A DNA stretch of 64,000 nucleotides from a virus. Below the pieces are notes generated by a model. The model saw only the letters and a program-made list of their open reading frames with translations, searched no databases and had not been told where the DNA came from. The stretch is taken from IMG/VR virus record IMGVR_UViG_3300032267_001142, positions 122,106 through 186,105 of that record; one strand, 5' to 3'. The position numbers were made by a program, and so were the translations under genes. Positions 6,268 to 32,430 of this stretch are shown piece by piece; the first letter of the stretch is position 1; each line of letters starts with the position of its first letter.

Positions 6268-6386
6268 CGAGGTTTAGGCACGACCGAAACGAGAGAGACA
6301 CAGTAGCATATCTAGTAATGCAGGCCCCTAATTCGGGCCTTAACGTGGTGCAAATCCCGCGAGTTGGAACGTCCGTGAAATCCTCG
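6268..6386 (+). ncRNA. Unclassified structured RNA motif, copy A (tRNA-like insert)
   Basis: CGAGG/CCTCG and CACG/CGTG stems; 18-mer GGAACGTCCGTGAAATCC shared with 8821-8838. Confidence 0.5.
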
Positions 6387-9581: not shown

Positions 9582-9656
9582 GGTTTGTTGGGAAACCGTC
9601 AATCCGCCCGCCTGCAAAGCGGGAGATGCCACGTTGGATTCGTGGACAAACCTCCA
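9582..9656 (+). tRNA. trnC: tRNA-Cys(GCA)
   Basis: Loop CTGCAAA, U73-CCA, T-loop TTGGATT. Confidence 0.85.
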
Positions 9657-9975: not shown

Positions 9976-10049
9976 GCTCGGCTAGCTTAATGATAAAGCA
10001 AGCCTCTCTAAAAGGTCGTATCTCGGTTTGAGTCCGAGGTCGAGCACCA
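9976..10049 (+). tRNA. Amber suppressor tRNA (anticodon CTA)
   Basis: GCTCGGC/GTCGAGC, GCCT-CTCTAAA-AGGT, CCA; anticodon 10008-10010. Confidence 0.75.
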
Positions 10050-15714: not shown

Positions 15715-16131
15715 ATGAAACCAATCTCCCGTAAGTCCTTCTTTGCTATTTTTGTCGCCCCGCTTTTGGCTCCGTTTTTACCAAAAGCCGTTGCAAAAAT
15801 CGTTAATCCAACTAGCGAGCCAACCGCTTCAAAGGTTTTCCTTACAGCGACAGAGGTAACGACAAACAAGAGAATCGGAAGCGTGAGCTTTTACAGTAAG
15901 TATCTTGCTAACGGACGAACGGAAGTCGCCGATAGAGCGCTGGCTCTCTTAGTTAGGCGGGCCGTCGATAGTGGCGCGTCGCACTATGTCGTCACATGGT
16001 CAGATGCGAACGCTCAGCGGGCATATTTCCATGAAAAATTTAACATACCGCTGAAAAACCTAGACTCTATGTTAGGAAAGTCCGAGCACTGGCTGAGCCG
16101 AGCTGAATTCGAGACACAATATCCTCTTTGA
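15715..16131 (+). CDS. Hypothetical protein with Tat-like N-terminus
   Basis: ISRKSFFAIFVAPLLAP. Confidence 0.5.
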   Translation: MKPISRKSFFAIFVAPLLAPFLPKAVAKIVNPTSEPTASKVFLTATEVTTNKRIGSVSFYSKYLANGRTEVADRALALLVRRAVDSGASHYVVTWSDANAQRAYFHEKFNIPLKNLDSMLGKSEHWLSRAEFETQYPL

Positions 16132-16273
16132 TGCTCTTTATACCTTATTCCAACGATTTTTTACTTCAGTCTCGATGCCGCCTCGGCGGAGGATGTAAAT
16201 ATGGGAAAATAATCGAGTTGGATGCTCGTTTTGAAAACGAGATAGGAATTATAGTAATTCGATAACGAATTAT

Positions 16274-16350
16274 GTCCTGTGAGGGAGCAAGTTGAACCCC
16301 ACAATCTGCAAAATTGTTGTTGCACGGCGCGATACCGTGACAGGACTCCA
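16274..16350 (+). tRNA. trnC: tRNA-Cys(GCA)
   Basis: Loop CTGCAAA, U73-CCA. Confidence 0.85.
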
Positions 16351-16352
16351 AT

Positions 16353-16697
16353 ATGAAACCCGAAGCGCAAAGAAAAGCTATCATTAAGTTCTGTGGCTGG
16401 AAAGACATCTCCGATAGCTGCCGCTATCGTTTAATGACTTTAGCAGTGATTCGAGACGAGCGGATGTTTAACGTCCACGACCCTTTGACGGATTTGAACG
16501 CGATGCGCGAGGCGGAGAGGATGTTGTCAGTAAAGCAAGCGAAACTTTATGTCGAGCTTTTGGGTGAGATAGTTCTGGACAACGGGGGCTGTTACTTCAA
16601 TAAGAACAAATATATGGCATTCGTGGCTCTAAATTCCACGGCTGCGCAGCGCGCCGAAGCTTTTCTAAAAGCTCTTGGACTTTGGACAGAAGATTAA
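16353..16697 (+). CDS. Phage ABA-sandwich-like protein
   Basis: AIIKFCGW..DPLTDLNAMREAE..STAAQRAEAFL; similar to 27474-27839. Confidence 0.55.
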   Translation: MKPEAQRKAIIKFCGWKDISDSCRYRLMTLAVIRDERMFNVHDPLTDLNAMREAERMLSVKQAKLYVELLGEIVLDNGGCYFNKNKYMAFVALNSTAAQRAEAFLKALGLWTED

Positions 16698-16736
16698 AAG
16701 TGTTGACGTTTTAGCAAAAGAGCCTAGAATGTAACC

Positions 16737-17715
16737 ATGCGATTGAGACAGGAAACTCTCTCGAAAGCAACAAAAGGGGGCATGACCTCTTAGATAACGC
16801 GCCGCAAGGCGAAGAAAGGCTGAAAGCCCTACATTTTCAGCCGCCGTTTACGGTCACTTATGCAACCGTAGTTCCTCGGTTTACAATGCCAAACATTGTG
16901 GACTAGACTATCGAGGTTCCGGCGTCCCGAAAGGGGCGTTTCCAGACGTGAAACTCTGGTAAACGGGTTCAAACTTAAATAGTCGAGAACGAAGCGTAGT
17001 TGTTTATGTCGAGCCTAGCAAGCAAGACGCGAACAGCAGCCCAAACGGGAGTGGACTCGTGAGAGTTTATGACCGAGAAAGCCGTCGAAATCGCCGCTGG
17101 CGAAAGATATCATGTTGTGTTGTATTGGGTGGTCGAAAGGTCATCTAGCGACTGGACAGACGCAACATAATAGGGATAAGTATTTGGAACTTACAAGAAA
17201 AAGTTCTGTCCACGTTAGCGCGATAAGCAGATTAAGTCGCTGGCCTTCGGGCAACAGCGAGCGTTAAACCTCTCAAGGGAATAACGTTTGGCGTCAGAGT
17301 AAGATTGGTTGGCCTTTAGCGGGGTTAGCTGAGACGAAAAAACGCTGAGTAGCGCGACGGTTAATGGATATGCTACCATTCAAAAGCATCTGTGAGAAAT
17401 AGCGGTCGAAAGGTCGCTGGATAACAAGATAACACATACGTCTTGTAAAGGTTCTCGAATCGAAGCATAGTCTCAGCTTTGATAATTTGGTCAGCGGGCG
17501 AGCTATTTGAACGCAGTCGTTTGCAAAACTTCTATAGCAAGGTGAGATTCCTTGGCTGACCTCCATCTCATCAGTAGCGTATTACGCTAGTTTGGCTGCG
17601 GCCCATTGGGTCGCGAATTAAAGAGTTCGGGTTGCTCTGAGCTTAGTAGATTGGCAGGACGGAGGTAATAATATCCGCGCTTGTTAGTTGCTGGACGGGG
17701 AGTTAGCCCCTTGAG
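16737..17715 (+). ncRNA. Large ornate structured ncRNA (~980 nt; GOLLD/ROOL-class candidate)
   Basis: Own promoter TTGACG-N16-TAGAAT (16703-16730); no + strand ORF; dense GNRA/UUCG hairpins and long-range helices; abuts a tRNA. Confidence 0.7.
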
Positions 17716-17719
17716 AAAT

Positions 17720-17794
17720 GGGTCATTGGTGAAATAGAATCACGACGCACTCGCAATGCGTAGTCGAGGGTGCGACTCCCTCATGTATCCACCA
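17720..17794 (+). tRNA. trnA: tRNA-Ala(CGC), bulged acceptor
   Basis: G3:U70, loop CTCGCAA, CCA. Confidence 0.85.
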
Positions 17795-17899
17795 CAATTT
17801 TTACGTCGGAAACACAAAGAAAACATAAATGCCACTCAATATCTTAACTCTTTCGGTAGTGATGTCCGCGTTACTAATCTTAACTAGCCGCCGTATTCG

Positions 17900-18400
17900 A
17901 TGAAATTTTTCAAGAAAGTCAAAACCATTACCTCCAAAGAGGGCGAGCTGCACTTCGAGCGCTGGGCGATTTTCGAGTCAAAGTGGCTCTCGTGGTATAT
18001 CCACAGAATACACAAGGCAGACAGGGACCATTTACATTCCTATCCTTGGAATTTTCTGTCACTAATCTTGAAGGGCTGTTATCTCGAAGAGAACGCTTAC
18101 GATACAGCAGATGGAAGTTTCTGCACAGGCTTAAAGATAAAGAGCCCGTTCACAGTCACTTACTGTAACAAATCTAAATTTCATAAAATCAACACCATCA
18201 TCTCTGGTCCGGTTTACACGACGATGTTTGTGTGGGGCGACACCCAGAAGTGGTTTTATCGGGTAGGAAAGAAGAGAATTCCTTTTGAGGAATATCGCGA
18301 AATCAAAGCCGCAGCCAAAGAGGCGGGGCTTTCTATCGAGGAGTATATCTTCAAATATGAGATTGGGCTCTTGACTCCGTCGCAAAAACGAGTAGACTAG
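17900..18400 (+). CDS. Cupin-like hypothetical phage protein
   Basis: YIHRIHKADRDHLHSYPWNFLSLILKGCY. Confidence 0.55.
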   Translation: MKFFKKVKTITSKEGELHFERWAIFESKWLSWYIHRIHKADRDHLHSYPWNFLSLILKGCYLEENAYDTADGSFCTGLKIKSPFTVTYCNKSKFHKINTIISGPVYTTMFVWGDTQKWFYRVGKKRIPFEEYREIKAAAKEAGLSIEEYIFKYEIGLLTPSQKRVD

Positions 18401-18412
18401 TAAAAATCAAAC

Positions 18413-18799
18413 ATGAAATCATTCCTAAAACTTGCAATCATCGCCGTCGCGTCACTATCAATCGCTGGGTGCCAGCCAGAATCAGACGTAGCCGCCTATA
18501 ATGTTTCGCAGGCCGCGCATAATTTTGAAGTCAACAGACGAGTCGTGTTCTACAACGGCATCACAGGAGATTACATACTCACCATCGAGGGTCTTCTATC
18601 TGTGACGCCAGAAGATAAGCGCCTCTCGGTTATCGTAAAGACTGGGCCGAATCAGTATAAGAAGCACTATCTTGGTGTTTCTGATAACGTGACTTGGTTC
18701 TGCGAACAAATCGAATCCGTTCCAGCGTCGCCTTTTCATTATCGTGTCATCTTCCGTCCTACCACGATTATCCCAGATGTCGAAGTTAGGACGCGCTAA
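18413..18799 (+). CDS. Phage lipoprotein
   Basis: Lipobox IAGC; NFEVNRRVVFYNGITG..YKKHYLGVSDNVT. Confidence 0.75.
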   Translation: MKSFLKLAIIAVASLSIAGCQPESDVAAYNVSQAAHNFEVNRRVVFYNGITGDYILTIEGLLSVTPEDKRLSVIVKTGPNQYKKHYLGVSDNVTWFCEQIESVPASPFHYRVIFRPTTIIPDVEVRTR

Positions 18800-31988: not shown

Positions 31989-32430
31989 TTCTTTGATAGT
32001 AATGGGGTAGCAAGGATTCGACAAATAAGACGAGTCTAAACCCGCAAGCCGCTTATGGTAGTTAGACTGCGTCAAATCTCTACCAAGCATAAACGTCTCA
32101 AACGTAATTGCAAAAGTGAAGACCGCTTGGAGCGCCTTCCGTAATAACCTTACGGTTGCCTTCGGGAGCTTTTCGCCCGTCGTGGCCTAATCACGGCCAC
32201 CCGTATCATTTCCGATTTCTGCTAGGACTTAGATGCGACATTAGCAGGATTTACGAAATAAGTTCGCATATTCTTATTCGTCACATACGATATACGCTGT
32301 GGTCAGTTAGGTTTTGTCATTTTAGACAACTGGCCGAAAGCAAAAAAGAAACTAAGCTTGTAGAAGGTCTGATAAAAATTGTTTGGACAGGGGCTTCGAT
32401 GCCCCTCTACTCCACCATTAGCCTTGATTT

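Follow-up and report, generated by a model that had tools for sequence, protein, structure and literature searches.

A predicted divergent GOLLD RNA gene in the tRNA island of an uncultivated 186-kb phage

The locus described here lies in a 64,000-nt stretch of DNA (the window, to which all coordinates refer) that corresponds to bases 122106–186105 of the 186,105-bp virus record IMGVR_UViG_3300032267_001142. The host is an uncultivated phage whose record is rated complete, with direct terminal repeats at its ends. Its terminase shares only ~24% identity with Bacillus phage terminases, and searches with the 166-aa and 716-aa proteins as queries recovered no close relatives of the phage. ARAGORN called 24 tRNA genes in the window, all on the same strand as the RNA gene considered below, and the phage as a whole bears ~50 unusual tRNAs. 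A tRNA with a CUA anticodon at 9976–10049 (+ strand), labelled Pyl by ARAGORN, is of the amber-suppressor type. Elsewhere in the window, a 418-aa phage ORF (40218–41474, + strand) combines WGR, PARP regulatory and PARP catalytic domains (PARP E = 1.5e-20).

Two protein genes flank the region of interest. Immediately 5′ of the promoter listed below lies a 114-aa ORF (16353–16697, + strand) whose relatives in viral contigs number at least 158 and for which no family was found in Pfam or PHROG; an association of this gene with GOLLD was rejected, as the GOLLD motif occurred in none of the 80 loci of its relatives that were examined. Directly after tRNA-Ala, at 17900–18400 (+ strand), a 166-aa ORF matches PHROG 4786, ‘cysteine dioxygenase’ (E = 1.6e-20); the tRNA-Cys-like gene listed below is its neighbour. 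When 16700–17800 was compared by blastn with 50,697 phage records, tRNA-Ala was the sole match; the phage concerned, Bacillus phage vB_BcoS-136, was discarded as a GOLLD carrier since it has no GOLLD-sized gap beside its tRNA-Ala. The following features were assigned from the DNA sequence:

16703–16730, + strand: sigma-70-like promoter TTGACG-N16-TAGAAT, predicted by consensus scan (10 of 12 matches), with a predicted start at ~16737
16737–16773, + strand: predicted leader hairpin with a GAAA loop, from the minimum-free-energy fold only, preceding the first conserved GOLLD element
16774–16863, + strand: start of the predicted GOLLD 5′ domain, from model R1, with helices that covary across lineages
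16864–16997, + strand: variable sub-domain of the 5′ domain, from model R3, holding the hairpin GCGTCCC-GAAA-GGGGCGT
16998–17112, + strand: last third of the 5′ domain, from model R2, with the junction CGAAAGATAT at its end
17110–17479, + strand: conserved GOLLD 3′ domain, from Rfam RF02032, with a short variable linker at ~17171–17204
17489–17565, + strand: tRNA-Cys(GCA)-like gene of 77 nt, called by ARAGORN at its default threshold, 9 nt past the GOLLD end
17566–17719, + strand: ORF-free structured spacer of 154 nt, its ends joined by the helix TCTCA/TGAGA (UCUCA/UGAGA)
17720–17794, + strand: tRNA-Ala(CGC), from the Rfam tRNA model (44.6 bits) and ARAGORN, with CCA at 17792–17794
32004–32417, + strand: phage-encoded tmRNA (Rfam, 95.3 bits), for which ARAGORN predicts a tag peptide

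The initial annotation had described a promoter TTGACG-N16-TAGAAT followed by nearly 1 kb of highly structured sequence without a + strand ORF, and these descriptions largely hold. A site matching the consensus is present at 16703–16730, its promoter function being predicted; the window holds just one other TTGAC...TAnAAT site. It sits directly 5′ of GOLLD. Within 16698–17899, no + strand ORF exceeds 51 aa, and the short ORFs of the stretch, on both strands, gave no match in Pfam or PHROGs. A shuffle comparison indicated 16737–17109 to fold better than shuffled sequence (z = −4.07), and the same was true of the spacer at 17566–17719 (z = −3.44, with 1 of 200 shuffles equally good). All five tetraloop hairpins named in that annotation were located: CGCC-GCAA-GGCG (16800–16811), GCGTCCC-GAAA-GGGGCGT (16922–16939), GGTGGTC-GAAA-GGTCATC (17128–17145), GCC-TTCG-GGC (17243–17252) and AGCGGTC-GAAA-GGTCGCT (17401–17418). 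The leader hairpin at 16737–16773 is not conserved in the relatives introduced below (alignment A3). On the + strand, no terminator-like site was detected in 16000–18500, and transcription therefore probably continues into the tRNA-like gene, the 154-nt spacer and tRNA-Ala.

GOLLD RNA was reportedly described by Weinberg and colleagues in 2009. The Rfam model of this family, RF02032, which covers only the conserved 3′ domain, matched 17110–17479 over model positions 1–416 of 416, with 150.6 bits, only 0.6 bits above the gathering score of 150 (E = 3.5e-40 in the window-wide scan). This match is unique in the whole 186-kb genome. In the cmscan alignment, the consensus helices of the 3′ domain are formed, the long-range bracketed helix included. 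By hand count, ~78 of the 89 displayed consensus pairs (~88%) are standard and ~11 non-standard, and many of the pairs kept belong to stems that depart from the consensus sequence. Rfam matches at E ≤ 1 in 16300–18000 were confined to GOLLD, tRNA and a sub-threshold tRNA-like viral element over tRNA-Ala; the models for ROOL, OLE, group I and group II introns and rRNA gave none. The cmscan check proposed at the outset thus returned GOLLD at the curated cut-off, and the earlier suggestion of a GOLLD/ROOL-class or new giant RNA narrows to its GOLLD part, the ROOL and new-RNA parts finding no support. As its author had stated beforehand, a strong GOLLD match confirms the class and lowers the novelty.

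For comparison, a pattern taken from the 3′ domain retrieved more than 116 GOLLD loci from IMG/VR, 116 of which were compared (L083–L197). Similarity detected by blastn and nhmmer, with three pieces of the present RNA searched against the 116 loci, was limited to the last 60–130 nt of the 3′ domain and a single weak 5′ match. A helix between GCTGAGAC and the last loop, GTCTCAGC, was considered and not adopted, as the matching upstream segment is missing in most GOLLD clusters; about one 8-bp match is expected by chance in 370 nt, so that this pairing is left unproven.

Upstream of the Rfam match, three covariance models (R1, R2 and R3) built from other GOLLD loci, with the present sequence left out, indicated a GOLLD 5′ domain. 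R1, derived from 10 loci of several lineages, describes a hairpin termed P1, a GNRA hairpin and two further hairpins; in a wider nine-locus alignment of the same stretch (A1), 15 of the 22 R1 pairs show compensatory changes. Its sole match in the 64-kb window is at 16771–16903 (23.4 bits, E = 1.7e-4). There, the P1 hairpin AAGGGG/CCTCTT, with the hexaloop GCATGA (16780–16785), is followed by GATA (16793–16796), the GNRA hairpin CGCC-GCAA-GGCG and AAAG (whole motif 16793–16818), then by the hairpins GGCTGAAA/TTTCAGCC and GCCG-TTTA-CGGT and, at 16858–16863, by the hexamer TTATGC. The GAUA motif, in which a GNRA-capped hairpin of 4–7 bp is followed by AAAG, recurs in 43 of 104 GOLLD loci, and its stem comes in at least 7 versions there.

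R2 and R3 derive from four relatives only (L159, L198, L199 and L202). The best R3 match, at 16861–17001 (12.1 bits, E about 1e-3), aligns the closing helix alone, formed by CGTAGTTC (16867–16874) with GAAC..GAAGCG (16987–16996). The interior of this variable sub-domain is 110 nt long here versus 143 nt in the relatives, and 16875–16986 does not align with them. R2 matched 16998–17112 over the full model (26.6 bits, E = 2.1e-5) with no non-standard pairs marked; under default filters it returned nothing in the 64 kb, and the match was seen with filters off on a 6-kb stretch. The junction motif CGAAAGATAT, with which this segment ends, is found again in many GOLLD loci. As the R1, R3 and R2 matches are collinear across 16771–17112 and abut the Rfam match, the 5′ domain is of GOLLD type as well, and GOLLD spans at least 16771–17479. 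The length of this 5′ domain lies at the short end of the GOLLD range.

The four relatives that gave rise to R2 and R3 form a small environmental subgroup, which the alignments identify as the nearest kin of this RNA. Alignment with them is collinear from the 5′ domain through the 3′ end, and the motif CGGTCAnTTAnnCAAnCGTAGTTC, through which the relatives were identified, is common to all five; no other distinct sequences were found with it. Two of the relatives pass the Rfam score of 150 (L198 with 170.4 and L159 with 154.7 bits). The other two, metagenome GOLLDs at L199:1186–2016 (− strand) and L202:12251–13081 (− strand), fall under the gathering score yet can be aligned over both domains; their last loop reads UUCUAA versus the near-invariant UCUCA. 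The borderline Rfam score of the phage RNA is therefore explained by a subgroup that straddles the curated boundary of the family. In a five-sequence alignment made with MAFFT on sequence only (A3), 46 consensus pairs are kept in the phage RNA through changes on both sides. It forms 112 of 192 pairs in A3, a count that understates its pairing because several hairpins are shifted by one or two columns.

Comparison across GOLLD loci further pointed to a contact within the 5′ domain. What R1 took to be one strand of a closing helix, six bases long, is the loop of the P1 hairpin, which has a covarying stem of its own. This P1 hexaloop is complementary to a hexamer ~60 nt past GAUA in every lineage with the exception of L106, whose single candidate partner is questionable. 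The two strands covary in seven lineages (the present window together with L097, L096, L092, L085, L164, L159, L198, L199 and L202), the pairs being GCUUAG/CUAAGC, GCAUAG/CUAUGC, GCUUGA/UCAAGC, GCAUAA/UUAUGC, GUUUGA/UUAAAC and GUGUGA/UUACAC, with GCAUGA/UUAUGC in this RNA. The contact is either a pseudoknot within one molecule or a kissing interaction between two.

The long-range helices proposed in the first reading fared less well. The pairing GGCTGAAA/TTTCAGCC is really a local hairpin with a 9-nt loop, and the comparative model R1 likewise places CCGTTTACGG in a local hairpin. The two 8-bp long-range helices do exist as matches in the sequence but, with ~7 perfect 8-bp complementary pairs expected by chance per 980 nt by our own arithmetic, they do not exceed the chance number.

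Nor does the region amount to a single ~980-nt RNA abutting tRNA-Ala, as had been supposed; it resolves into three units, with GOLLD extending to 17479, the tRNA-Cys-like gene occupying 17489–17565 and a 154-nt element reaching up to tRNA-Ala. The tRNA-Cys-like gene combines a perfect acceptor stem of 7 bp with a T stem of 5 bp, a GCA anticodon, U73 and an encoded CCA; its anticodon stem contains U.U and C.U mismatches. The Rfam tRNA model did not report 17489–17565 at E ≤ 1, and at gathering score it likewise missed the island's two remaining tRNA-Cys genes. The three tRNA-Cys(GCA)-type genes (9582–9656, 16274–16350 and 17489–17565) all have U73 and CCA, and the T loops of all three lack the usual TTC.

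A tRNA-type element behind GOLLD is a recurrent arrangement. Among the 116 other GOLLD loci, 46 carry a tRNA on the same strand, often tRNA-Ala(CGC) or tRNA-Arg(ACG), that starts 6–47 nt past the GOLLD end, with a mode of 13 nt and in several independent clusters; the commonest upstream neighbour in the 116 loci is tRNA-Met. The tRNA-like gene of the phage is thus placed as an ordinary tRNA is elsewhere, which fits co-transcription and formation of the GOLLD 3′ end by RNase P. Acceptor stem, T arm and CCA constitute the minimal shape cleaved by this enzyme. It is plausible that tRNA processing releases the 3′ end, as the initial annotation had proposed; the element responsible would be the tRNA-Cys-like gene 9 nt downstream rather than tRNA-Ala 240 nt downstream. 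More generally, many independent GOLLD lineages have a tRNA or tRNA-like gene at short spacing past the 3′ end, which supports the view that this end is made by tRNA-type processing.

The spacer begins right past the CCA of the tRNA-Cys-like gene and ends 3 nt before tRNA-Ala(CGC). Searches of 17566–17719, in which the 50,697 phage records and the 116 GOLLD loci were included, returned neither an Rfam match nor a paralog or homolog. Two candidates for its content were dismissed: further tRNAs, which ARAGORN called only at very relaxed settings and in mutually inconsistent form, and an RNA motif repeated at 6366 and 8821, which is absent from the spacer. We also entertained, as an unlikely option, that the tRNA-Cys look-alike (perhaps non-decoding) and the self-closed 154-nt RNA are not intergenic junk and instead make up a dedicated 3′ module, an undescribed partner RNA that might act as a processing handle, an adaptor or a cargo for the cage.

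Taken together, the region very probably is a GOLLD RNA gene of about 710–745 nt (from 16737 or 16771 to 17479) located within the tRNA island of a phage whose 186-kb genome is complete. GOLLD would be transcribed from its own sigma-70-like promoter, recognized here by its match to the consensus, and transcription would probably read through past GOLLD into the tRNA-like gene, the 154-nt spacer and tRNA-Ala. A cut by RNase P, possibly the host enzyme, at 17489, the 5′ end of the tRNA-Cys-like element, would then leave GOLLD with a 9-nt tail. By analogy with env-38 (PMC12286853), the RNA may build a homo-oligomeric cage in the course of lytic growth.

The main alternative extends the RNA in the 3′ direction, all of 16737–17715 being one RNA of ~980 nt in which a GOLLD variant carries a 240-nt 3′ extension and retains the tRNA-like fold and the 154-nt module, either as additional domains or as cargo. 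It would account for the lack of a terminator-like site between the parts and for a spacer that folds as well as its z of −3.44 indicates, and it has a precedent in GOLLD RNAs that hold tRNAs within the linker (PMC12286853, PMC6582537). However, both the Rfam model and all four relatives stop at the equivalent of 17479, similarity to the 3′ tail is found in none of the four relatives and none of the 116 loci, and the tRNA-like element has its acceptor stem, T arm and CCA intact. The whole 3′ tail, moreover, folds only marginally better than its shuffles (z = −1.73), and we hold this reading to be improbable.

A different concern is that an RNA scoring at threshold, with a short 5′ domain and one 5′ sub-domain that cannot be aligned, might be a decaying, non-functional GOLLD remnant. 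Yet standard pairs make up about 88% of the consensus pairs displayed, many of them in stems off the consensus sequence; the 46 pairs retained through two-sided changes, in spite of A3 having been made on sequence alone, point the same way. Intact relatives lie equally close to the Rfam cut-off, and the DNA directly upstream holds one of the two promoter-like sites that rank best in the 64 kb, all of which leaves decay a very remote prospect. We give next to no credence to a new RNA class resembling GOLLD only in part of its 3′ half, an idea already disfavoured: sequence identity to known GOLLDs is indeed very low, but the 3′ domain matches the full model, and three independent 5′-domain models match in collinear order. 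Judged from its alignments and models, the stretch is a divergent copy of the known GOLLD family, 5′ domain included, and a new RNA class is not supported.

GOLLD is among the largest non-coding RNAs of bacteria and phages and builds a 14-subunit, RNA-only cage. The present copy is a divergent, compact addition from a tRNA-rich phage. While the general understanding of GOLLD is left unchanged by these results, the comparison reveals a subgroup that straddles the Rfam cut-off, with two clear homologs below it, and a covarying contact of the P1 hexaloop.

GOLLD RNAs are borne by phages or prophages and lie close to tRNAs (PMC12286853, PMC5737381, PMC6582537), and GOLLD levels rise during phage lysis (PMC12286853). 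The env-38 GOLLD solved by cryo-EM (Kretsch et al. 2025) is an 833-nt RNA that forms a 14-mer cage of RNA only, in which the 5′ domains (residues 1–420) make the caps and the 3′ domains (residues 421–833) the rings (PMC12286853). Like the family, the RNA described here is phage-borne, sits within a tRNA island and has a tRNA-type element directly 3′. Its organization resembles that of RF02032 and env-38, with a 3′ domain that matches the full model, a separate and less conserved 5′ domain of several hundred nucleotides and a short variable linker; from its predicted start it measures ~743 nt as compared to the 833 nt of env-38. In contrast to its four nearest relatives, which follow tRNA-Met, it has its own predicted promoter after a protein gene. 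It differs from other GOLLDs in a score right at the cut-off, in the tRNA-Cys look-alike with its mismatched anticodon stem and in the additional structured spacer of 154 nt.

In mycobacterial tRNA arrays, too, a GOLLD is reported to lie in a large, horizontally mobile tRNA cluster, together with a pseudo-tRNA and an extra tRNA-Cys (PMC6582537; Morgado et al. 2020, cited in PMC12286853). The pseudo-tRNA there resides inside the GOLLD gene on a bacterial chromosome, whereas here the tRNA-like gene lies 9 nt past the 3′ end in a free phage genome. ROOL (PMC5737381; PMC12286853) is likewise a large, ornate phage RNA that occurs near tRNAs and forms cages, as the present RNA might by analogy with env-38; in sequence and fold, however, the two are unrelated, and the Rfam scan of 16300–18000 gave no ROOL match at E ≤ 1.
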